Position numbers and translations under genes: made by a program. Below, in pieces: positions 5,367 to 18,141 of a DNA stretch of 55,667 nt. This stretch comes from an uncultured Candidatus Saccharibacteria bacterium (GTDB taxonomy: Bacteria; Patescibacteriota; Minisyncoccia; Phycocordibacterales; GWA1-40-21). The notes beneath the pieces are model-generated. The model was not told the DNA's origin. It saw only the letters and a list, made by a program, of their open reading frames with translations, and did no database searches. The stretch is from the NCBI GenBank assembly GCA_964605355.1, contig CAZSCE010000003.1, positions 1-55,667 of the forward strand. The letters are read 5' to 3'. The number at the start of each line of letters is the position of its first letter. Within the stretch, counting starts at the first letter, position 1.

Positions 5367-6776
5367 ATGGAAAAGAATTTTACATTTGTAATCATGGGGG
5401 TGACGGGGGATTTGGCTAAACTCAAGCTTATTCCCGCTATCTATAATTTACTAAAGCTAAATCCCACCATGCGGGTTTCCCTTATTGGCACTGCGCGTTC
5501 GGACACCACCATCCAATCAATTTTAGATGAATCAAAAAAACTTATTTCTAATTTAGACACGGCGGTTTGGAATAAATTATATAATTCTGCTCACTATGTG
5601 CGCCTAAACTTTGATAATTTCGCAGATTTTGAAAATCTGCGCGCTAAAATATTAGAGGTTGAAACTCAGAATAATTTATCTGGTAATAGATTATTTTATT
5701 TAGCCACCCTGCCGGAGCATTTTGAAGCCGCCACTATTAATTTAGCCAAAGCGGGTTTGGTAAACTGTAAAGATAATAAATGGGAGCGTGTATTATATGA
5801 GAAACCTTTTGGGGAGAGTCTGGCTTCAGCTAAACAAATAAACAAAACGATTGATAAAGTTTTTGCGGAGGAAAATGTGTATCGCGTGGATCATTATCTA
5901 GGCAAGGAACTGGTGGGGAATATTGCTCTTCTGCGTTTTACCAACCGGATTTTGGAGCCGTTATGGAATAATAAAAATATAGATTCCGTGCAAATTATTT
6001 GTGATGAGGACTTTGGTATAAAAAACCGGGGTAATTATTATGATAAATACGGCGCCATAAAAGATATTTTGCAAAATCATATTCTGCAAATGCTTTCTTT
6101 GCTGGCCATGGAGTCACCAAAATTTATTTCCGGGGAATATTTGCGAAATGAAAAAGTAAAAGTTTTAAAGGATACAAAAGTGGTGGATATATTACTGGGC
6201 CAGTACGAGGGTTATGATAAGGAACCAGGGGTCAAGCCGGATTCCAAAACGGAAACATTTTTTGCGGCTAAACTAACTGTAAATAATAGGCGCTGGCGCG
6301 GGGTGCCATTTTTTGTTCGAGCCGGCAAGAATTTAAATAAAAAAGAAACCGTTATTCATATTCGGTTTAAACCGGTGGATTGTTTACTGGCTAAAACTTG
6401 TCCGTCTGATAATAATTATTTGACTATCCGGGTACAGCCTAATGAAGGATTTTCTTTTGAGCTCAATTCCAAATCTTTAAGAAAGGGTTTTGAGGTGGAA
6501 ACCGTGGATATGGAATATTGTCACTCCTGTGAGCATGGTCTAAACACACCGGAGGCTTATGAAGTGTTGCTAGAGCAGGCTATTGCGGGGGAGCAGGCGC
6601 TCTTCGTGCGTAATGATGAGGTGGAGTTAGCTTGGAAAATTGTGGATGGTTCGACTTCGCTCACCACAGGTAAAGATGGTAAAAAAGTAGTTTATAAGTA
6701 TCCTATTGGTAGTTCTGGACCAAAAGAATTGGCCGACTGGAATAAGAAGAATAATATTACATGGAAACAAAAATAA
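5367..6776 (+). CDS. zwf: Glucose-6-phosphate 1-dehydrogenase
   Basis: G.TGDLA, EKPFG, RVDHYLGKE, RW.GVPFF.RAGK. Confidence 0.97.
   Translation: MEKNFTFVIMGVTGDLAKLKLIPAIYNLLKLNPTMRVSLIGTARSDTTIQSILDESKKLISNLDTAVWNKLYNSAHYVRLNFDNFADFENLRAKILEVETQNNLSGNRLFYLATLPEHFEAATINLAKAGLVNCKDNKWERVLYEKPFGESLASAKQINKTIDKVFAEENVYRVDHYLGKELVGNIALLRFTNRILEPLWNNKNIDSVQIICDEDFGIKNRGNYYDKYGAIKDILQNHILQMLSLLAMESPKFISGEYLRNEKVKVLKDTKVVDILLGQYEGYDKEPGVKPDSKTETFFAAKLTVNNRRWRGVPFFVRAGKNLNKKETVIHIRFKPVDCLLAKTCPSDNNYLTIRVQPNEGFSFELNSKSLRKGFEVETVDMEYCHSCEHGLNTPEAYEVLLEQAIAGEQALFVRNDEVELAWKIVDGSTSLTTGKDGKKVVYKYPIGSSGPKELADWNKKNNITWKQK
6645..6670 (+). repeat. Family F element in frame in zwf (DGSTSLTTG)
   Basis: GATGGTTCGACTTCGCTCACCACAGG. 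Confidence 0.85.
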
Positions 6777-10044: not shown

Positions 10045-11109
10045 ATGTCTCAGAAAGTATTATATTCAAAAACATTTAAACCACCTAAATTCCTAGAGAT
10101 GTCCTCAGTGGCGGTGGAAATACTGCCTAGTGGTATTACTTTTTTGTTGACCAAAGCCACTGAGTCCGGTTTGGTTCCAGAAATGCAGGGGTTTATTTCT
10201 TTGCCACCTGGGGCAGTAGAGCAAGGGAAAATTTTTAAGCGTGAGCCGGTGGTCAAGGCCTTGATAGAAATTAGAGAAAAGACCAAGGTTAGTTTTGCCC
10301 GGTTATCTATTCCTGAGGAGAAAACTTATATTTTTAAAACCTCCCTACCGGAGATGGCCGCTGATGAAGTCCGAGACATCATTGATTTTAAAATTGAAGA
10401 AAATGTACCTCTGTCCTCCAAAGAAGCAGTTTTTGATTACGATATTATCCCCAATGTTAAAAAGAAAAGTGGTTTAGAAGTGGTGGTGTCAGTTACACCA
10501 TTAGATTTTGTGATGGATTTACAAAGTCTTTTTGATTCCGCTGGTCTCACCCCAGTATTTTTTAGCCCGGAATCAAATAATGTGGCTAAATCTGTGGTAA
10601 AAGAGGGGAATCAGCAGGTGGTAGTAGTTGCTAATATTCGCGAATCAAACATTATTTTATCACTAGTTATTTATGGGGTGGTTTGTCAGACAGCCTCACT
10701 AAATTTTGGTAGTAGTACTTTTACAGATTTACTGGCAAAATATTTTAAAGTGACTACGGCGGAGGCGGCTAAAATTAAAAATGAAAAGTTGTATACTGAG
10801 AATTCTGATAATATGGAAATATTTTCTTATCTTATAAATACCATTTCTGCTATTAAAGATGAGATCTATAAATTTATTTCTTATTGTAATGAGCGGGAAG
10901 ACGTGACCGGAGAAGTGGATAGGATTATCTTGTGTGGCCGTGACGCCTTGATTGTGGGGATGGATAGGTATTTAGCTTTAAATTTGGATATGAGTGTCAG
11001 CGTAGCTAATGTTTGGATTAATAATTTTGAAGCAGAGAATTATGTGCCAGAAATAAACAAACTGGACTCCATGGATTTAGCTGTTCTAAACGGGTTAAGT
11101 CAATTTTAA
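10045..11109 (+). CDS. Type IV pilus assembly protein PilM-like (actin-like fold)
   Basis: G.V..G.I, EENVP....A.FDY, ILCG motifs; first gene of a pilMNO-like operon. Confidence 0.75.
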   Translation: MSQKVLYSKTFKPPKFLEMSSVAVEILPSGITFLLTKATESGLVPEMQGFISLPPGAVEQGKIFKREPVVKALIEIREKTKVSFARLSIPEEKTYIFKTSLPEMAADEVRDIIDFKIEENVPLSSKEAVFDYDIIPNVKKKSGLEVVVSVTPLDFVMDLQSLFDSAGLTPVFFSPESNNVAKSVVKEGNQQVVVVANIRESNIILSLVIYGVVCQTASLNFGSSTFTDLLAKYFKVTTAEAAKIKNEKLYTENSDNMEIFSYLINTISAIKDEIYKFISYCNEREDVTGEVDRIILCGRDALIVGMDRYLALNLDMSVSVANVWINNFEAENYVPEINKLDSMDLAVLNGLSQF

Positions 11110-11111
11110 TT

Positions 11112-11660
11112 ATGGCAAATTTAATTACTGAAAAACAAAAAAAGTTAATAAAAATTGATTATTTGATGAGACTGTTTTCACTTTCCCTCATCATGCCTTC
11201 CGCCCTGCTCGGTATTTTTTTGTTGGCTTACGTAATTCCTTATTATCTATCTATTAATAAAAAAGATCAGATCGTGGCCGGGCAGTTTACCGCCGTTCTT
11301 AATGCTGAGAACAGAGAAAATGTTGGGGAAAGTACCACTCAATTAATGGGCCGAACTACAGAGGAGATAAAGGCTCTAGAGTTTTATAATACAAAATCTT
11401 TGATGCCGTTAGATTATTTTAATAAAATTATTGGGAATAAAAATCCAAATATTAGTTTAAGTAAGATGTCAGTTTACTCAGTAAAGGTGGGGGAAATACA
11501 AATTGTTATAAGTGGAGTATCTAAAAATAGGGAAGGGTTAGTCCTCTTTATTCAAGATTTAAAGTCTAAAGCGGGGTTTGCTAGCGTTACTTCACCCATT
11601 TCTGATTTTGCCAAAAATATGGATATTTCATTTACCATAAACATTAATAGTCCTATATGA
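11112..11660 (+). CDS. PilN-like protein
   Basis: N-terminal MANL, single TM, ISG.SK.RE.L..F...L, F..V.SP.S; follows the pilM-like gene. Confidence 0.65.
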   Translation: MANLITEKQKKLIKIDYLMRLFSLSLIMPSALLGIFLLAYVIPYYLSINKKDQIVAGQFTAVLNAENRENVGESTTQLMGRTTEEIKALEFYNTKSLMPLDYFNKIIGNKNPNISLSKMSVYSVKVGEIQIVISGVSKNREGLVLFIQDLKSKAGFASVTSPISDFAKNMDISFTININSPI

Positions 11661-12208
11661 AAATAAATTTTTCCAAAAAAATATTTATAGTTTCTATTAC
11701 AATTTTTATTGTAGTTTTAGCTATGGATATGGTTTCTTCATATTTATTAATAAACAAGATTATAGATATTAATAATAAAGTAAAGCAACTAAATATTTCC
11801 TCCCAAGATAGGTTAAAACAATTATCCTTAAATGATGCTATTAGTAGTTCTGTGAAAGAAAGAGAGAAATTAACCGGTTACTTTGTGGGGCCAGGGGATC
11901 TGAATACAGTAGATTTTACTAAATCACTAGAAGATTTGGCTGATATTATGGGTGTTACTCAGAAAAAAAGCTTGGCCTATGAAGAGGTGCCTGGCTTGGC
12001 TTCAGCTGGTGCGGTTCAATCTATTAGATACAAGTTTACTGTCTCCGGCAAGTGGGCAAATGTTTATAATTTTGTTCACGCTATTGAAAATTTACCAAAA
12101 ATATCTGCTCTGGCCAGCGTATCATTTATTTATAGTGCTGGGGATAAAGCTGGTGCTGGGGTGTGGTTTGCGGATTTAGATTTTTCCGTTTTAAAACTAA
12201 AAAATTAA
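11657..12208 (+). CDS. PilO-like protein
   Basis: N-terminal TM, G.W..V..F...IENLP motif; operon position. Confidence 0.65.
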   Translation: MKINFSKKIFIVSITIFIVVLAMDMVSSYLLINKIIDINNKVKQLNISSQDRLKQLSLNDAISSSVKEREKLTGYFVGPGDLNTVDFTKSLEDLADIMGVTQKKSLAYEEVPGLASAGAVQSIRYKFTVSGKWANVYNFVHAIENLPKISALASVSFIYSAGDKAGAGVWFADLDFSVLKLKN

Positions 12209-12209
12209 T

Positions 12210-12551
12210 ATGAAAAAAATTAATTTAAAAAACCTCTTAAAAAGAAAAGCTGAGTCTATAAAATTTGGGACAACTCCCGCTTGGCCAATACATCATATTC
12301 GAGACTGGAAAATTTTAGTTTACACTTTTGCTATTGGTTTGATAGCTATTTCAATATTTTCCTGGCAAATATACCTGAGTAATGAAATTGCTGGAGGCTA
12401 TTTAAATATTCAAGATGCTAATCAGCAGGTTCCGGCCAAGGCTATAAATTTAAAAAAATTACAAGCCGATCTATTAATTTTAGAAACCAGGCAGACTGAC
12501 TATTTAAAAATTAAAGCTAATCCAGTAAAATTGGTTGACCCAAGCCTTTAA
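12210..12551 (+). CDS. Single-TM protein closing the pilMNO-like operon
   Basis: RDWK + TM helix, C-terminal VDPS; starts 1 nt after the pilO-like stop. Confidence 0.6.
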   Translation: MKKINLKNLLKRKAESIKFGTTPAWPIHHIRDWKILVYTFAIGLIAISIFSWQIYLSNEIAGGYLNIQDANQQVPAKAINLKKLQADLLILETRQTDYLKIKANPVKLVDPSL

Positions 12552-12620
12552 AACTGTTATATTCTCTCTTGTTCTTTGAATTTGGTACATAGGGTTAGAA
12601 TAGTGTGGTATAATCCTTAT

Positions 12621-12962
12621 ATGCCATACAAAGATAGGAAAAATCTCTATGCCGCACAGAAAAGACACCGTGTGAGGATAAGAGAAAAACTTTTTATATT
12701 TTTGTCTTCGAAATCTTGTTTTGATTGCGGGGAGAAGGATCCTGTGGTTTTAGATTTTGACCATCGTGAACATTCTAAAAAATTTAAAACTATTGGACGA
12801 ATGTTGTCGGGACATTATTCTTGGGTTTCTGTATTACATGAGATAGAAAAATGTGAAATAAGATGCGCAAACTGTCATAGGCGTAAGACCTATATTGAAC
12901 AAAAAAGTTGGGGTAGGGGCATATGCTCCCATAGCTTAATGGATAAAGCAGGACTCTTCTAA
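12621..12962 (+). CDS. HNH-type endonuclease (CxxC...FDH...CANCH); stop codon lies in the tRNA-Arg anticodon loop
   Basis: SCFDCGE.DPVVLDFDH...EIEKCEIRCANCHRRKT; start at ATG 12621 after TGG-TATAAT-N6. Confidence 0.85.
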   Translation: MPYKDRKNLYAAQKRHRVRIREKLFIFLSSKSCFDCGEKDPVVLDFDHREHSKKFKTIGRMLSGHYSWVSVLHEIEKCEIRCANCHRRKTYIEQKSWGRGICSHSLMDKAGLF

Positions 12963-12996
12963 GGTCTTGATGGGGGTTCGATTCCCTCTGGGGGCA
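12925..12996 (+). tRNA. tRNA-Arg(TCT)
   Basis: GCTCCCA-TA-GCTT...GGACT-CTTCTAA-GGTCT...GGGGG-TTCGATT-CCCTC-TGGGGGC-A. Confidence 0.93.
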
Positions 12997-13061
12997 CAAA
13001 AATAGAAAATATGTTAATATAATAAACAGATCACTGAACCTTTAGGGGAAGGAAGTAGTTA

Positions 13062-13406
13062 ATGAATAAGTATGCCCGACCTATAATTTGGACATTTTTT
13101 CTGGTGACGGTGCTATGCGGCTGCCAAACTACTGGTATAAAGCGCCAGGTCTATACACAAGGAGAGGTGCCGGCAGTTGGGGAATATGTGTACGTTTTTG
13201 ATGTCATTAGCTATTTTCAGTCTGGCCAAATGAAACATGTACTTGTTTGGAAAATAGCTGGTGAACAAACAGTTCGTACGGCACACCTTTTTGGTTTTTG
13301 TTTTTCAGGCCTTCAGAATTACAATAGTCAGGGTTGGTACTTAATTCAAGCTGATCCAGAAACTGAGAGACACTTCCAACCGGTAAAGATGGATAAGTTT
13401 GAATAA
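13062..13406 (+). CDS. Orphan putative lipoprotein
   Basis: Signal-like N-terminus with VLCG-C lipobox-like motif; purine-rich RBS GGAAGGAAG; hairpin plus T-run at 13436-13460. Confidence 0.55.
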   Translation: MNKYARPIIWTFFLVTVLCGCQTTGIKRQVYTQGEVPAVGEYVYVFDVISYFQSGQMKHVLVWKIAGEQTVRTAHLFGFCFSGLQNYNSQGWYLIQADPETERHFQPVKMDKFE

Positions 13407-13466
13407 TGGTTCGGGATACCATGGTAAGTTCTCCCAAGGCCGAGCATCCGCTGGCCTTTTATTTTG

Positions 13467-13539
13467 TGGGCGGTAGAGGGCTCGAACCCCTGACATCGTC
13501 AGTGTAAATGACGCGCTCTACCAACTGAGCTAACCGCCC
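13467..13539 (-). tRNA. tRNA-Val(TAC)
   Basis: GGGCGGT-TA-GCTCAGTTGGTAGAGC...CGTCA-TTTACAC-TGACG...GGTTCGAG. Confidence 0.95.
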
Positions 13540-13606
13540 ATAGGCAATAGATTAACCTAAATTTCAAGATAATGCAATTTTTCTCATTTTATGTTAGAAC
13601 TTAGGG

Positions 13607-14326
13607 ATGGAAATAGAAATCCTTTATGAAGATAAGAATCTATTGGCGGTGAATAAACCAAGCGGTCTTGTGATACATACTGATGGCCGCACTAAAGAGG
13701 AGGCCCTGACAGGCTGGATTAAGAAAAAATATCCTGAGTGTGAAGAGGTGGGAGAGCCTTTAAAAATTGGTACTGGTGAGACTATAAAAAGATGGGGAAT
13801 AGTACATAGAATTGACCGGGAGACATCCGGGGTGGTGGTTATTGCTAAAAATCAGAAAACTTATCTTTTTTTAAAAAAGCAGTTTTTGGATAGAGAGATA
13901 GAAAAGTCATATCATGCCATAGTCTATGGTGATGTGCGTTATGACGAGGGAATAATTAATTTACCTATTGGTAGAAACCAAAGTGACTTTAGAAAAAGAG
14001 CCACGGGTAAGGAGGTGCGTGGGGAGGCACGGGAGGCTATTACTCATTACAAAACTCTAGCTAGAAAAGAAAGGATTTCTCTAATTGAAGCAAACCCTAG
14101 AACAGGGCGTACCCATCAGCTCCGCGTGCATTTTGCGGATATTGGTCATGGAATTATTAGTGACCGTTTATATGGTGTCTCTAAAAAATCTCCAATTGAT
14201 ATCAAACGTTTAGCCTTGCATGCTTATGCTATAGAGTTTGAATTACCGGAAGGGAAACTAATAAAAATAATTGCGCCTTACCCACCAGATTTCCAAAAGG
14301 CGGTGAGCTTCTTTAAATTTGCCTAA
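13607..14326 (+). CDS. RluA/RluD family pseudouridine synthase
   Basis: VNKPSGL, GIVHRIDRETSG, TGRTHQLRVH, LHA. Confidence 0.95.
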   Translation: MEIEILYEDKNLLAVNKPSGLVIHTDGRTKEEALTGWIKKKYPECEEVGEPLKIGTGETIKRWGIVHRIDRETSGVVVIAKNQKTYLFLKKQFLDREIEKSYHAIVYGDVRYDEGIINLPIGRNQSDFRKRATGKEVRGEAREAITHYKTLARKERISLIEANPRTGRTHQLRVHFADIGHGIISDRLYGVSKKSPIDIKRLALHAYAIEFELPEGKLIKIIAPYPPDFQKAVSFFKFA

Positions 14327-14353
14327 ATTATTTAATTGTGCTAGATTACGGGA

Positions 14354-14737
14354 ATGAAAATTTCATCAGTAAACATTGAAGAGCGAAAGAAACTATCCCT
14401 CAAAGCTGGGGATACTGTTCGTATTCACCAAAAAATTGTAGAAGGAGACAAAAGCCGAATCCAGATTTTTGAAGGTTTGATGATTGCTCGTAAACACGGT
14501 AATGAAGCTGGTGGTACTATGACTGTGAGAAAGGTGATTGATGGAGTGGGGGTAGAGAGAATTTTCCCATTTTACTCACCAAATATTGATAAGATAGAGG
14601 TGGTCAGAAGTTCCAAGACTCGCCGAGCCAAACTATACAATGTCCGTGACAAAGCCGCCAAGGAAATCCGCCGTAAGATGAAAAATATTATTAATGCCAA
14701 GGAAGTAGTTGAGGAAGCTCCAGTTGAAACTAAATAA
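14354..14737 (+). CDS. rplS: 50S ribosomal protein L19
   Basis: [32 protein letters not shown]. Confidence 0.98.
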
Positions 14738-14739
14738 AT

Positions 14740-14779
14740 AAAAACAAAAACTCCAGTTTAAAGACTGGAGTTTTTGTTT
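14740..14779 (+). terminator. Intrinsic terminator after rplS
   Basis: AAACAAAAACTCCAGT-TTAAAG-ACTGGAGTTTTTGTTT. Confidence 0.85.
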
Positions 14780-14806
14780 GTTTTAAGCTATATTTAGCAT
14801 TCAAAT

Positions 14807-14890
14807 GCCCGGGTGGCGAAATTGGTAGACGTACTACCTTGAGGTGGTAGCGCCTTTACAGGCATGGGAGTTCAAGTCTCCCCCCGCGCA
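14807..14890 (+). tRNA. tRNA-Leu(GAG)
   Basis: GCCCGGG-TG-GCGAAATTGGTAGAC...CTACC-TTGAGGT-GGTAG, variable arm, GGGAG-TTCAAGT-CTCCC. Confidence 0.93.
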
Positions 14891-14914
14891 CAAAGAAGTG
14901 ATATAATAGATATT

Positions 14915-15475
14915 ATGTTATACACAAAAAGTGGAGATGACGGTAAAACAAGTTTGTTTCATTGTGACCAAAGAATGTCTAAAAGTTCCTTGGTAGCTGA
15001 AGCTTTGGGTTCTTTAGACGAGGCCAATTCTTTTTTGGGAGTTGTTAAGGCTAAATTAGCTGAAAGAAACATTACTTTATTTTCCGTGGGTCCGGAAAGA
15101 GCGGCGGATATTATTCAAGAGATGCAGGAAAATCTTTTTACTATTCAAGCCGAGGTGGCTGGGGCAGATAAAGATGTTAATGCGGAAAAAATAAAAGAAG
15201 TTGAAGATTTGATTTCTAGTATAGAAAAAGAAATTCCTCCTATTACTTCTTTTATAATTCCTGGTGGTTGTACAGAGTCGGCTGAATTAGATTTTGCTAG
15301 AACACTAATCAGAAGAACGGAGAGACAGGTGGTGGCGGTGGTGGAAGAGGGTATAGTCAAAGTCTCTCCAAATACTTTAGCCTATATAAACCGTTTATCC
15401 AGTCTTTTATTCGCCCTAGCTAGACTTTCCGCCCATAAAAGTGGTGTTAAGGAAAATAGCCCCAGTTACGAATAG
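14915..15475 (+). CDS. ATP:cob(I)alamin adenosyltransferase (PduO type)
   Basis: LYTKSGDDG.TSL, G.LDEANS, F.IPGG, ART..RR.ER, Y.NRLS.LLF.LAR; start at ATG 14915. Confidence 0.92.
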   Translation: MLYTKSGDDGKTSLFHCDQRMSKSSLVAEALGSLDEANSFLGVVKAKLAERNITLFSVGPERAADIIQEMQENLFTIQAEVAGADKDVNAEKIKEVEDLISSIEKEIPPITSFIIPGGCTESAELDFARTLIRRTERQVVAVVEEGIVKVSPNTLAYINRLSSLLFALARLSAHKSGVKENSPSYE

Positions 15476-15542
15476 GGAAGCACTGATATTTCTGAAATAT
15501 TCAGAAGTTGTCTTAATAACTATTTGATGATATACTTAAGGC

Positions 15543-16034
15543 ATGATTGCTAAATGCTTAAATTGTAAAATTCCTTTTTATACAAAACCATCTTGGGTAA
15601 AGAGTGGTGGTGGAAAATATTGTTCATTAAATTGTAAATACATCGCCTCAAAAGTGGGGGAGAATATCCCTTGTTTTACTTGTGGCAAAGTCGTTTATCA
15701 TCCAAAGGCTCGAATAGCCAAATCAAAGAGTAAAAAATATTTTTGTGGTAAGTCCTGCCAAACAATCTGGCGAAACTCTTACTTTATAGGTAAAAAGCAT
15801 GCAAATTATAAAGACGGCCGGTCTACCTATCGAGATGTTTTAATTAGAAATAAAATTCTGGCCGTTTGCAGATTATGTAAAACTAATGATAAACGTGTTC
15901 TTGCTGGACACCATCTAAATAAGGATAGAAGGGATAATAGGGTTGAAAATTTGGTCTGGCTGTGTCACAATTGCCATCACCTCATTCATCACTATGATAT
16001 TGAGGCAAGAAAGCTTATGGTGGCTATAGTTTAG
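15543..16034 (+). CDS. Zinc-finger repeat plus HNH endonuclease; stop codon lies in the tRNA-His D-arm
   Basis: Two CxxC...(Y/F)CxxxC modules, then CRLC...GHHLNKDRRDNRVENLVWLCHNCH. Confidence 0.87.
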   Translation: MIAKCLNCKIPFYTKPSWVKSGGGKYCSLNCKYIASKVGENIPCFTCGKVVYHPKARIAKSKSKKYFCGKSCQTIWRNSYFIGKKHANYKDGRSTYRDVLIRNKILAVCRLCKTNDKRVLAGHHLNKDRRDNRVENLVWLCHNCHHLIHHYDIEARKLMVAIV

Positions 16035-16093
16035 TGGTAAAACTCAGGTTTGTGGAACCTGTATCGAGAGTTCAATTCTCTCTAGCCACCCCA
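16019..16093 (+). tRNA. tRNA-His(GTG) with encoded G-1 and CCA
   Basis: G-GTGGCTA-TA-GTTT...CAGGT-TTGTGGA-ACCTG...GAGAG-TTCAATT-CTCTC-TAGCCAC-C-CCA. Confidence 0.94.
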
Positions 16094-16119
16094 ATTTATT
16101 TTTATGTTATTATATTGAC

Positions 16120-17148
16120 ATGAAGAGGAGGGTATTTATCATGTTTTTAATAACCATTTTATTTTCTAGTTTTCTAGGGGTATTTTGTATTTCAAAAACA
16201 GAAGCCGCGGCCTATGAGCGGGTATTTTATTTTAGAGAAGGACCGAATGCCAGGAAATCATTTTTTAGTCATCCGGGGCCAATTGATGTTTTTGCTCCGC
16301 AAAATTATATGGTGGATAATAATGGTCATTTATTAGGCACAGTCAAACCTGACTTATTAGCCTATGCTAGAAATAATAAAATAAAGGTGATGCCGCTTTT
16401 AACTAACGGCGCCTTTAATGCCACTACCAGTAAAATATTTTTAGATGACACAGTTAAGCAGGATGTCTTGATCAATAATTTAGTTTTAGAGGCTAAAAGT
16501 TTTCAATATATTGGTTGGCAAATTGATTTTGAACAAATGGAGCTCTCTTATCGTGATGTTTTTTCTAGGTTTATTGAACGTGCGTATGTGGTATTTCAAA
16601 AAAATAATTTAAAATTAAGTGTAGCGGTAATTGCTCAGATATCAGAAAATCCTAATGACTATCCAAAGAATTTATGGCAAAGGATTATTGGGGTGTATGA
16701 TTATGCTCGGTTGGCCTCTAGCACAGATTTTATCAGTATCATGTCATATGATGACCCAAGCTCAATTGGTCCAGTGACCGGTTATGAATGGCTAAATAAA
16801 GTTATTGATTTTAGTTTAACCAAAATTCCTAAAGAGAAAGTATCTCTCGGGTTAGCTTTTTATTATTGGCAGTGGCGGGATTTAGATGGTAAAAGAACGG
16901 GGATTGGTGGGGTAGAAGGAATAAATAATGTCATAAGTAAATATAAAGTTACATATCATTATAGTACAGAAGAACAGGCCCCATATTTTCACTATTGGAG
17001 TACCAGAGATGGTAAGGGTTACACCATTTGGTATGAGAATGCCAAAAGTATTAGTAAAAAGATAGCCCTAATAAAAGAGCATCAGTTAAAAGGCTTTTCC
17101 GCGTGGGCCCTTGGCCTGGAACTGCCTAGCGTGTATACTGTAATGTAA
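16120..17148 (+). CDS. Secreted glycoside hydrolase family 18 protein
   Basis: Signal peptide, GWQIDFE catalytic DxE, IMSYDD, IWYEN..S...K, GFSAWALG.E. Confidence 0.87.
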   Translation: MKRRVFIMFLITILFSSFLGVFCISKTEAAAYERVFYFREGPNARKSFFSHPGPIDVFAPQNYMVDNNGHLLGTVKPDLLAYARNNKIKVMPLLTNGAFNATTSKIFLDDTVKQDVLINNLVLEAKSFQYIGWQIDFEQMELSYRDVFSRFIERAYVVFQKNNLKLSVAVIAQISENPNDYPKNLWQRIIGVYDYARLASSTDFISIMSYDDPSSIGPVTGYEWLNKVIDFSLTKIPKEKVSLGLAFYYWQWRDLDGKRTGIGGVEGINNVISKYKVTYHYSTEEQAPYFHYWSTRDGKGYTIWYENAKSISKKIALIKEHQLKGFSAWALGLELPSVYTVM

Positions 17149-17180
17149 GCTATACTTTATTAGTTTAATAATAACAAAAC

Positions 17181-17564
17181 ATGCAACCATTTATAAAAAA
17201 TATTGAGAAGGAGACTTTAGAAAATGAGAATTTTAGAACAGTTCTTTATACCTCACAACATGGCCAAGTGGTGGTAATGTCATTATTACCAAATGAGGAG
17301 ATTGGCATGGAGGTGCATGAGACCACAGATCAATTTTTTAGAATTGAGAGCGGGGAAGGGCAAGTAATTATTAATGGGGAGACGTTTCAAATATCTGACG
17401 GTTCTGCCGTGGTGGTGCCGGCTGGTTCAAAACATAATGTGGTAAATACTTCCGGTGATAAATCTCTAAAACTTTATACTATTTATATGCCGCCACATCA
17501 CAAAGATGGCGTGATTCATAGAAACAAAGAAGATGCGGAAAATGACACCGAGGATCACCTTTAA
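17181..17564 (+). CDS. Cupin domain protein
   Basis: EIGMEVH...DQFFRIESG.G, VPAG..HNV.N, KLYTIY.PPHH. Confidence 0.92.
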   Translation: MQPFIKNIEKETLENENFRTVLYTSQHGQVVVMSLLPNEEIGMEVHETTDQFFRIESGEGQVIINGETFQISDGSAVVVPAGSKHNVVNTSGDKSLKLYTIYMPPHHKDGVIHRNKEDAENDTEDHL

Positions 17565-17565
17565 T

Positions 17566-18141
17566 ATGAAGCCGGAAAATATTGAGATTTTAAAGCGTGG
17601 CGGGGTGGGGGTAATACCTACGGATACTATTTATGGATTGGCTTGCTCGGCTTTTTCTGTGACGGCAGTTGAGAGGATTTATAATTTAAAAGGGCGGGAT
17701 GAAAATAAACCATTGGTTATTATAATTTCTGATATTTCTGATTTAGAAAAGTTTGGGGCTAAAGTTTCTGAGGAGCAATTAAAATTTATAAAGAAATATT
17801 GGCCTGGCAAAGTTACTATTATTTTTGAAATCTCCAAAGATTTTAATTATTTAGACAAGGGTTTAGGTTTAGCTATTAGATTACCAGCGGATGAAAATAT
17901 ATTAGAATTTTTAAAACAAAGCGGCCCCCTAGCTACCTCGTCAGCCAATATTCAAGGAAAAATACCAGCTAAAAATATAGAGGAAGCGCAGAAATATTTT
18001 GGGCCGTCTACAAGCCGGGCAGGTGATAAGGTGGATTTTTATGAAGATGCAGGAGAATTGGATTCCGCCCCCTCCACTCTGGTTCGAATTTCTGGTGATA
18101 AGGTAGAAGTTTTACGTGAAGGTGTAGTGAAGATTTTATAA
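17566..18141 (+). CDS. tsaC: L-threonylcarbamoyladenylate synthase (Sua5/YrdC)
   Basis: PTDTIYGL, KGR...KPL, WPG..T, SSAN..G, PST, LREG. Confidence 0.93.
   Translation: MKPENIEILKRGGVGVIPTDTIYGLACSAFSVTAVERIYNLKGRDENKPLVIIISDISDLEKFGAKVSEEQLKFIKKYWPGKVTIIFEISKDFNYLDKGLGLAIRLPADENILEFLKQSGPLATSSANIQGKIPAKNIEEAQKYFGPSTSRAGDKVDFYEDAGELDSAPSTLVRISGDKVEVLREGVVKIL

Follow-up and report, generated by a model that had tools for sequence, protein, structure and literature searches.

The stretch of DNA discussed here is a contig of 55,667 nucleotides (nt) from an uncultured Candidatus Saccharibacteria bacterium (CAZSCE010000003.1, hereafter the window; its genome, G000, is 93% complete), and our subject is a gene for an HNH nuclease on its forward strand, the end of which runs into a gene for tRNA-His. 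The nuclease gene (15543..16034) encodes 163 amino acids (aa) and was delimited from the list of open reading frames (ORFs), an alignment of homologues, and the family match, AlphaFold2 model and VIA-align comparisons described below. Upstream of it, on the same strand, a promoter scan finds a -35 hexamer TTGTCT (15508-15513), a 17-nt spacer, a TG and a -10 hexamer TATACT (15508..15536 in all), with TG-a-TATACT at 15528-15536 followed by six bases and then the ATG at 15543. The tRNA-His(GTG) gene (16019..16093, also forward) encodes both its G-1 and its CCA; Aragorn places it at 16020..16093 and Rfam at 16020..16090 (67.5 bits), the G at 16019 being G-1, and it is the single tRNA-His among the 26 tRNAs found in this genome. 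The ORF ends in ATG GTG GCT ATA GTT TAG (16017-16034), its final five sense codons and TAG stop being tRNA sequence. A sequence-only reading of this DNA had described a TGA-TATACT-N6-ATG arrangement, a 163-aa protein with two cysteine zinc modules and an HNH motif, and a 16-nt overlap with tRNA-His. All three are present, the promoter scan adding the -35 hexamer, and Aragorn and Rfam giving an overlap of 15 nt, or 16 when G-1 is counted.

The association between this nuclease family and tRNA-His extends well beyond the window. Of 353 candidate relatives of the protein, 347 match at E ≤ 1e-3, hundreds of them being 155-170 aa long; those with a source name come from Patescibacteria (Parcubacteria-group) taxa or are named simply 'bacterium'. 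A scan of one genome per species found a relative in 332 genomes. The best 80 loci, from genomes of different species, were examined (L003 being the window's own sequence). tRNA-His lies directly downstream in 79/80 of them, and in 78/80 Aragorn calls it as tRNA-His(GTG) on the same strand; these 78 loci are the denominator of the locus counts below. The tRNA-His of L071 (3478-3549) has an unusual T arm and was missed by Aragorn but recognised by a tRNA-His profile (nhmmer, E 2.5e-10), and the remaining locus, L045, stops at a contig edge. A fixed pairing of the nuclease family with one tRNA isotype, which the sequence-only reading had set as a test beforehand, is therefore what the family displays. 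Whole-genome searches of a class-level sample likewise found tRNA-His downstream in 24/24 loci; as that sample was taken from the same species-representative collection, with at least 4 contigs common to the 80-locus set, the two figures are not independent.

The junction between the two genes is itself conserved. The same 15-16-nt overlap in the same frame occurs in 51/78 loci, and for this reason the overlap is more than a chance encounter of an ORF with a tRNA; two further loci overlap differently, and in 25 only 2-26 nt separate the ORF from the tRNA. Among homologues at 50-60% identity the C-terminus is in many cases M-[VAE]-x-[ILMV]-[VA], the translation of a tRNA 5' end, and two homologues in the alignment read straight through a tRNA-His. 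The last codons of the window's ORF cover the tRNA in the sequence that the earlier reading had given; the ATG among them, however, belongs to the context of tRNA-His and not to the ORF. It precedes tRNA-His in 73/78 loci, some of them with an ORF that has already ended, and in four HNH-free alleles from the window's genus, so that A, U and G occupy positions -3 to -1. The G-1 is expected, and the choice of cleavage site by RNase P may be what conserves the A and U before it.

The distribution of the nuclease is patchy, with empty alleles, as had been anticipated for a homing gene. Strong matches (E ≤ 1e-30) were found in 23/401 genomes of the class (22/354 of the high-quality ones) and in 23/283 genera, spread over many families. 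Within the window's genus 6/16 genomes have a match better than 1e-60, and those with no or only weak partial matches to the family include some that are 91-99% complete. At four empty syntenic sites (G002, G004, G008 and G012), tRNA-Leu(GAG) is followed by an adenosyltransferase gene, about 10-20 nt and tRNA-His, with no nuclease. The same site holds a nuclease gene and a 67-nt spacer in G000, G003 and G006, and two tandem nuclease genes in G009, G010 and G013. Tandem pairs are found in G020, G210, G351 and G221 as well, and the members of each pair fall in different clades except in G221. Truncated copies of the nuclease were found in G151, flanked there by tRNA-Leu and tRNA-His, and in G409, next to tRNA-His. 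Identity to the window protein is 100%, 82%, 50%, 47% and 46% for the copies from the window's genus and reaches 57-58% for those of other taxa. In a quick maximum likelihood tree of 36 copies, the genus copies are placed in at least three well-supported separate clades, and the upstream members of tandem pairs from five genomes form a clade of their own. The gene history is discordant with that of the hosts: when the six tRNA-proximal copies of the genus are required to group together, an approximately unbiased (AU) test rejects the constraint (log-likelihood difference 90.3, p 9.6e-69).

On the evidence of allele comparisons among eight genus members, in which tRNA-Leu(GAG) lies 0.7-1.5 kilobases (kb) from tRNA-His, the tRNA-His allele travels too. 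The tRNA-Leu(GAG) genes of G012, G010 and G013 are 97-99% identical, whereas their tRNA-His genes are only 58-66% identical. G000 and G012 present the opposite case, with identical tRNA-His genes, yet with tRNA-Leu genes 80% and adenosyltransferases 59% identical. Between G000 and G004 the adenosyltransferases are 80% identical and tRNA-His only 72%. The window's tRNA-His allele recurs unchanged in G003, G006 and G012, even though the flanking genes are only 59-72% identical.

Around the nuclease and its tRNA lie pieces of another tRNA-His gene. In the 90 nt upstream of the nuclease start, many loci contain the 5' part of a tRNA-His, ending just past the anticodon. Using nhmmer with a profile of 78 tRNA-His genes and counting 5' halves at E < 1e-3, we found such a half in 15/78 loci (and in 6/24 loci of the class sample), extending from about model position 1 to positions 32-44, mostly 36-38. 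Its end lies 70 nt upstream of the nuclease ATG in L034 and 47-59 nt upstream in the other 14 loci. Compared with the 5' half of the intact tRNA that follows, these remnants show only 59-80% identity (median 68%), and 11/15 retain the ATG context of a real tRNA-His gene. An earlier local alignment of the upstream region with the locus's own tRNA had given 5/78 loci at a score of at least 24, with inconsistent ends; it was insensitive because the remnants are different alleles, and the profile search was used instead. On the other side, 3' halves are found 10-49 nt past the intact tRNA in L017 (E 4e-5), L065 (E 3.5e-4) and L101 (model positions 37-73, E 0.0047), with a weaker one past the intact tRNA of L008 (E 0.013). 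In L065 and L008 the acceptor strands of the upstream and downstream remnants, read by eye, pair with one mismatch, and both differ from those of the intact tRNA between them. Remnant-bearing loci thus contain a disrupted tRNA-His copy and, linked to it, an intact copy of a different allele.

The window carries what may be a decayed trace of the same kind, a possible remnant of the resident 5' half (15480..15496, forward strand) read from the sequence. The adenosyltransferase stop codon (15473-15475) directly precedes it, and its 17 nt would correspond to the end of the D stem followed by the anticodon stem and loop, the loop now being TTCTGAA. The 5' halves of the 15 other loci occupy the same position. 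Since the dead halves flank an intact tRNA, the tRNA-His overlapped by the ORF would be cargo and the resident gene the target. Homing at a tRNA gene, which the sequence-only reading had proposed, accordingly stands as far as the pairing, the patchiness and the empty alleles go, but the overlapped tRNA appears to be part of the cargo of a cassette rather than a resident neighbour.

Given this architecture, the fixed pairing, the patchiness and empty sites, the split remnants and the discordant alleles, we interpret the DNA from about 15490-15500 to at least 16093 as a selfish mobile cassette of about 0.6-0.65 kb inside a resident tRNA-His gene, an interpretation to which we give a probability of roughly 70%. 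The cassette would comprise a sigma-70-type promoter, a probably leaderless zinc-finger HNH gene and a complete tRNA-His, and, as the ORF runs into the 5' end of the tRNA, nuclease and tRNA-His would form one transcription unit. Cleavage, the position of the cut, the route of repair and any immunity of the cargo are what we infer beyond this. The nuclease would recognise the anticodon stem-loop region of the tRNA-His gene as DNA and cut there; this region gives the gene its isotype specificity and recurs, inverted, at the left end of the cassette. The break would be repaired from a cassette-bearing copy, perhaps on DNA taken up by the cell, with the tRNA halves or wider flanks providing homology. 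The cassette would in this way enter the resident gene at the anticodon loop, after about nucleotides 35-38, leaving two dead halves to decay while its own tRNA-His takes over their function. With the only working tRNA-His inside the cassette and fed by its promoter, the cassette would be hard to lose. In loci of the overlap class, cleavage by RNase P at G-1 would also strip the stop codon from the co-transcript. The logic would be that of a homing endonuclease that restores the host gene by means of a linked rescue copy and not by the splicing of an intron or intein.

The promoter belongs to the cassette, lying as it does in the insert-specific spacer that empty alleles lack. In 64/78 loci the first base of the best -10-like hexamer is 11-13 nt upstream of the ATG, and a full -35/-10 pair at that spacing is found in 40/78 HNH loci as against 39/369 long ORFs of the genome. 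In the window the -10 ends 6 nt before the start codon, and from promoter spacing alone the nuclease mRNA is predicted to be probably leaderless. A second promoter-like site (15971..15998, forward strand; TTGCCA, 16 nt, TATGAT), also from the promoter scan, is made of the N-C-H and H-H-Y-D codons at the 3' end of the ORF, its -10 ending 21 nt 5' of the tRNA. Internal sites of this kind scoring at least 9 of 12 are enriched, with 14/78 loci as against 6/234 control windows inside ORFs, but they are composed of conserved codons, so that a promoter here is only a candidate.

At the left end, a motif CCACA[AG] or TCAGA[AG] lies 6-10 bases upstream of the -35 in 53/78 loci, and its 5-mer occurs at -55 to -42 from the ATG at about 19 times the rate seen at other upstream positions. 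The motif is the reverse complement of the anticodon loop region of tRNA-His, and where it lies beside a surviving 5' half the two form a palindrome: a perfect one of 17 base pairs (bp) in L007, one of 14 bp in L073 and one of 7 bp in the window, where TTCTGAA-ATA-TTCAGAA (15490..15506, forward strand) forms a perfect 7-bp hairpin. Junction hairpins with a best score of at least 7 are found in 10/78 loci and in 2/78 shuffled sequences. We considered and set aside the hairpin as a selected structure, the arm types being without strict covariation, and treat it as a consequence of having an inverted anticodon-loop motif at the cassette end. In double-stranded DNA the left-end motif is the anticodon-loop site in the other orientation, so that the nuclease could bind here too, with the motif serving, for example, as an operator. 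I-TevI reportedly represses its own promoter in such a manner.

The nuclease itself looks intact by its catalytic and zinc residues, its family match and its predicted structural neighbours. The cysteines of the two zinc modules are at residues 5, 8, 27 and 31 and at 44, 47, 68 and 72; a conserved linker follows, and then a Zn-HNH domain at about residues 100-150 (C109, C112, H123, H124, N132, N136, C141, N143, C144, H145 and H149). None of these residues varies among 34 aligned homologues. The N-terminal half may be described as two FCS/TRASH/MYM-like Cys4 modules, on weak matches only. The PHROGs family phrog_1271 ('HNH endonuclease') matches residues 4-154 with an E value of 3e-14, in agreement with the likeness to phage-type free-standing homing endonucleases that had been noted from the sequence. 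Pfam HNH_3 gives 19.7 bits, below its cut-off of 24.8, the NCBIfam IscB model matches residues 102-155 only (E 1.5e-5, 24.3 bits against a cut-off of 175), and a profile search of the PDB gives an IscB match at E 0.0027. The AlphaFold2 model has a predicted local distance difference test score (pLDDT) of 85.7. Foldseek found no match in the PDB at E ≤ 1e-3 for either of two models searched, that of the HNH protein included. With VIA-align the C-terminal half is nearest to the IscB HNH (Z 7.1, root mean square deviation (rmsd) 2.4, 64 residues aligned) and to EcoKMcrA (Z 6.7, rmsd 2.8, 73 aligned), with I-HmuI at Z 4.5 (rmsd 4.0, 66 residues aligned); the top rows are almost all HNH nucleases, the best Z of 7.1 being below the level at which the tool makes a firm call. 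The ORF stands alone with its own promoter, outside any intron or intein. Rfam, applied at gathering thresholds to positions 11000-18000 of the window, finds only tRNAs, and HEARO or omega RNA or any other structured RNA was rejected as a candidate on that result.

Several points weigh against the cassette interpretation or against parts of it. No recognisable 5' half was found in 63/78 loci and 3' halves are present in only three or four, so that the split-gene picture needs decay to be assumed elsewhere; in the window itself (L003) the trace at 15480-15496 is too short or diverged for an nhmmer score. The cut site has been placed from the end positions of the remnants only. Comparison of cargo and remnants shows the same anticodon loop in both and revealed no resistance determinant, and for that reason the model gives no account of how the cargo escapes cutting. 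In G009 the tandem ORFs share 4 nt and no tRNA remnant separates them; tandem pairs are thus not simple nested insertions. G012 has the window's tRNA-His allele with no nuclease and an ordinary empty-site junction, a state that fits either allele exchange without the cassette or a clean loss, but that the simple model does not predict. The AU test was made on a quick IQ-TREE tree of a short protein (about 165 columns), and the group tested was set by taxonomy and position after the tree had been seen. As for carriage by phages, viral contigs in IMG/VR gave no full-length gene and just two partial matches, to the HNH motif only; this candidate was rejected.

Two further points of this kind concern expression. 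Only 16/369 genome ORFs of at least 200 aa have a Shine-Dalgarno-like motif, and given this rarity the lack of one before the nuclease gene is no argument for a leaderless mRNA; a claim made on that ground was dropped. The same 16/369, together with the 39/369 long ORFs that have a leaderless-spaced -35/-10 pair, suggests that leaderless or otherwise Shine-Dalgarno-independent initiation is common in G000. One lake metatranscriptome run matches the locus at 100% identity and low depth with two contigs, 15404-15607 and 15771-16002, the first of which extends across the predicted transcription start. Since such contigs give no transcript ends and DNA carry-over is possible, its origin may be read-through transcription or library DNA. 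From three DNA runs only fragmentary contigs were obtained; one joint among them, linking 14854 to 16038 with 21 letters on the shorter side in a run at 85% likeness, was left out of account.

These points bear on the alternatives to different degrees. A classical free-standing homing gene could have settled between the upstream gene and the resident tRNA-His, which would then be its neighbour and target and be altered by short-tract co-conversion, the upstream halves being scars of unrelated rearrangements. The position of the insert in the genus, exactly between an adenosyltransferase gene and a tRNA-His that are about 10-20 nt apart in empty alleles, is what such a gene would show, and the identity of tRNA-His between the empty G012 and the occupied G000, like the many loci with no 5' remnant, agrees with it. 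Unrelated scars would not, however, be expected to run from tRNA position 1 to the anticodon loop at a fixed distance from the promoter in 15/78 and 6/24 loci, nor to have matching 3' halves just past the intact tRNA in L065, L008, L017 and L101. Remnant and cargo alleles moreover differ at about a third of positions, and the relationships among tRNA-His alleles conflict with those of genes within 1.5 kb. We consider this explanation unlikely, and find the cassette with its own tRNA the better account of the halves.

It is also conceivable, at a slim chance in our estimation, that the cassette is mobile but is moved by DNA uptake and homologous recombination or by an unseen helper, while the HNH protein excludes competitors, acts in defence or represses its own promoter. 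Cleavage by the HNH protein is, after all, inferred, and the left-end motif by the -35 could be an operator instead of a cut site; genes that may encode a type IV pilus, just upstream in the window, would also fit movement by DNA uptake. Against this, the catalytic residues are invariant over 34 sequences at 50-80% identity, which argues for selection on nuclease activity, and the tRNA halves (about 35 nt) are too short for efficient recombination without a break. The arrangement recurs in at least two unrelated HNH families and in a LAGLIDADG-like family, as expected if the nuclease is the driver. Very improbable, finally, is a vertically inherited and frequently lost host gene with a housekeeping or regulatory role linked to tRNA-His, such as processing of the co-transcribed precursor or tuning of the tRNA-His supply. 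The tight, conserved overlap and probable co-transcription are in its favour, and an RNase P cut at G-1 that removes the ORF's stop codon could couple the two products; but strong matches in so few genomes of the class and genus, the rejection of a single origin within the genus by the AU test, the truncated copies, and nearest folds that are DNA nucleases all speak against it.

Other nuclease-tRNA pairs are present in the window and its genome. A second HNH gene in the window (12576..12962) overlaps tRNA-Arg(TCT) (12925..12997), the pair, from the ORF list and Aragorn, spanning 12576..12997 on the forward strand. BLASTP gives an E value of 0.12 between the window's two HNH proteins, which have no detectable likeness beyond the motif. 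In 5/5 close homologues of the second protein, from different genomes, tRNA-Arg(TCT) follows; in more distant relatives the tRNA is Arg(TCG), Gln(CTG), Pro(TGG) or Asn(GTT), and of the 30 loci examined (L124-L153), 19 with weaker matches have no tRNA following. At its Pro and Gln loci, 5' tRNA fragments of the same isotype were seen by eye upstream. As this family is unrelated to the first and has an isotype pairing of its own, the arrangement arose more than once. On both points, the lack of similarity between the two proteins and the repeated origin, the sequence-only reading was right. Further upstream, four consecutive ORFs (10045-12551) may be type IV pilus assembly genes (PilM/N/O-like), and if they serve DNA uptake they would be one route for cassette entry.

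In three genus members, tRNA-Ser(TGA) is paired with an HNH subfamily that has about 30% identity to the His family. At locus L096 (on G009:C1), a decayed tRNA-Ser(TGA)-like sequence can be made out by eye 40-100 nt past the intact tRNA-Ser of a Ser-linked HNH cassette. It has the 5' strand of an acceptor stem, a TGA anticodon arm and a stretch resembling a T arm, and looks like a displaced older copy. In the window's genome, tRNA-Arg(TCT), Leu(TAA), Gln and Tyr also have a nuclease-like ORF at or into their 5' ends; no remnants are recognisable beside these four pairs. The HNH ORF linked to tRNA-Leu(TAA) (Pfam HNH, E 2.3e-7) lies between tRNA-Cys and tRNA-Leu(TAA) at C8:10138-10740 (forward strand), and its frame reads through tRNA-Leu. 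Another HNH ORF (C6, about 15990-16400, forward strand) and tRNA-Thr(TGT) are divergently oriented, with about 100 nt between the ORF and the tRNA's 5' end.

A third family, of Patescibacteria proteins of about 230 aa whose genes likewise end within or beside tRNA genes, is represented in the same genome at C1:56651-57358 (reverse strand, with tRNA-Gln at 56593-56665), at C8:1930-2571 (reverse strand, with tRNA-Tyr at 1862-1944) and at C13:5012-5572 (forward strand, upstream of tRNA-Ile(TAT) at 5713-5786). It comprises 2375 proteins at E ≤ 1e-5 and is present in 82/201 class genomes, with up to 9 copies in each. Among 31 frames of its 30 best loci (L154-L183), tRNA-Gln(TTG) follows 14, Lys three, and Met, Arg(TCT), Arg(TCG) and Gly one each, while eight have no tRNA within 120 nt and two stop at contig ends; individual subfamilies are tied to Gln, Lys, Met, Arg or Gly. 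The protein has an N-terminal helix-turn-helix, and the closest structures to its C-terminal domain are LAGLIDADG folds (WhiA Z 6.7, an intein endonuclease domain Z 6.6, I-DmoI Z 6.4, E-DreI Z 6.2); with Z scores in this middling range, the LAGLIDADG assignment is a lead only. A sequence search of the PDB with the Gln-linked protein gave no match. A motif of about 55 nt with a GC-rich hairpin (ccctcc...aaagg.gggg) is common to the regions upstream of the Gln- and Tyr-linked ORFs (C1, about 57360-57420, and C8, about 2575-2635, both on the reverse strand). We put forward only tentatively, judging the odds to be slightly against it, that Patescibacteria harbour a guild of natural cleave-and-rescue elements from at least three unrelated nuclease families, two of them HNH and one LAGLIDADG-like, each tuned to the anticodon region of one isotype and fused to a replacement tRNA.

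To our knowledge, homing endonucleases have been thought to persist in essential genes only by way of self-splicing introns or inteins, or else between genes. The cassette suggests a third route, in which an essential gene is broken and a working copy is brought along, with neither intron nor intein; what would be new here is that an element of the homing-nuclease type carries a spare copy of its essential target and restores the target with it. Such an element would explain why ORF and tRNA are welded together, why tRNA-His alleles within one genus are as diverged as those between families, and why several nuclease families have converged on the 5' sides of tRNAs in reduced genomes. If there is indeed a guild, much of the tRNA gene set in the tiny genomes of Patescibacteria would be turned over horizontally by selfish cassettes, and an essential gene could be invaded without an intron or intein by an element that carries a spare. 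tRNA genes may be poor phylogenetic and synteny markers in these bacteria, and gene callers will annotate ORFs that end inside tRNAs. The cassettes also offer small (about 160 aa) protein-only nucleases that apparently read different tRNA anticodon regions as DNA, a series that could be of use in retargeting studies.

In the full-text literature searched, subscription journals and supplements lying outside it, no account of nuclease-tRNA cassettes in Patescibacteria was found. The closest described system is SegB of phages T4 and T6, a free-standing GIY-YIG homing endonuclease in phage tRNA gene clusters that cuts within tRNA genes and spreads with neighbouring tRNA genes; the 3' end of segB is reported to share microhomology with a tRNA gene's 5' end (PMC13096335, PMC6409571; primary source Brok-Volchanskaya et al. 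2008). Like the cassette, it is a stand-alone nuclease gene among tRNA genes. The fold is GIY-YIG in SegB and HNH in the cassette, and SegB is found in phages whereas the cassette resides in cellular chromosomes. No isotype preference is reported for SegB (PMC13096335), while the cassette subfamilies are each tied to one isotype; nor is SegB described as splitting its target tRNA and replacing it by a carried copy, as the cassette appears to do.

The anticodon loop of tRNA genes is a known site of bacterial group I introns (PMC3984707). Intron-encoded homing endonucleases, as is the case for the cassette, enter a conserved essential gene, and I-HmuI is also of the HNH type. A group I intron was nevertheless rejected as an explanation here: there is no ribozyme, and the promoter, the ORF and a complete tRNA fill the space between the tRNA halves. 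Function would be restored by this second complete tRNA and not by splicing, the halves of the old gene being left to decay. Tyrosine-integrase elements, as Williams is said to have described in 2002 in Nucleic Acids Res, insert into tRNA genes, often at the anticodon loop, and restore an intact gene by means of the partial tRNA copy that they carry. An integrase-borne island was rejected likewise, as the element of about 0.65 kb holds a single ORF, the HNH gene, and no integrase. It carries a whole tRNA and not a displaced 3' part, with the old 5' half upstream and the old 3' half downstream. As regards IscB/Cas9 and McrA-type enzymes, only the Zn-HNH module matches, the cassette protein having no RuvC, guide RNA or modification-reading domain; an IscB/OMEGA RNA-guided nuclease was ruled out by the size of 163 aa, the match confined to the HNH part, the lack of RuvC and the absence of an RNA family match.

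The engineered Cleave and Rescue (ClvR) element reportedly uses Cas9 with guide RNAs and acts in a diploid animal. It is described as a synthetic selfish element in which a nuclease that disrupts an essential gene is linked to a working copy of that gene (PMC6442612). As far as that description goes, the logic of the cassette is the same, and the cassette would be a natural counterpart to such engineered cleave-and-rescue drives, differing from them in being natural, protein-guided and bacterial, and in sitting inside its own target.

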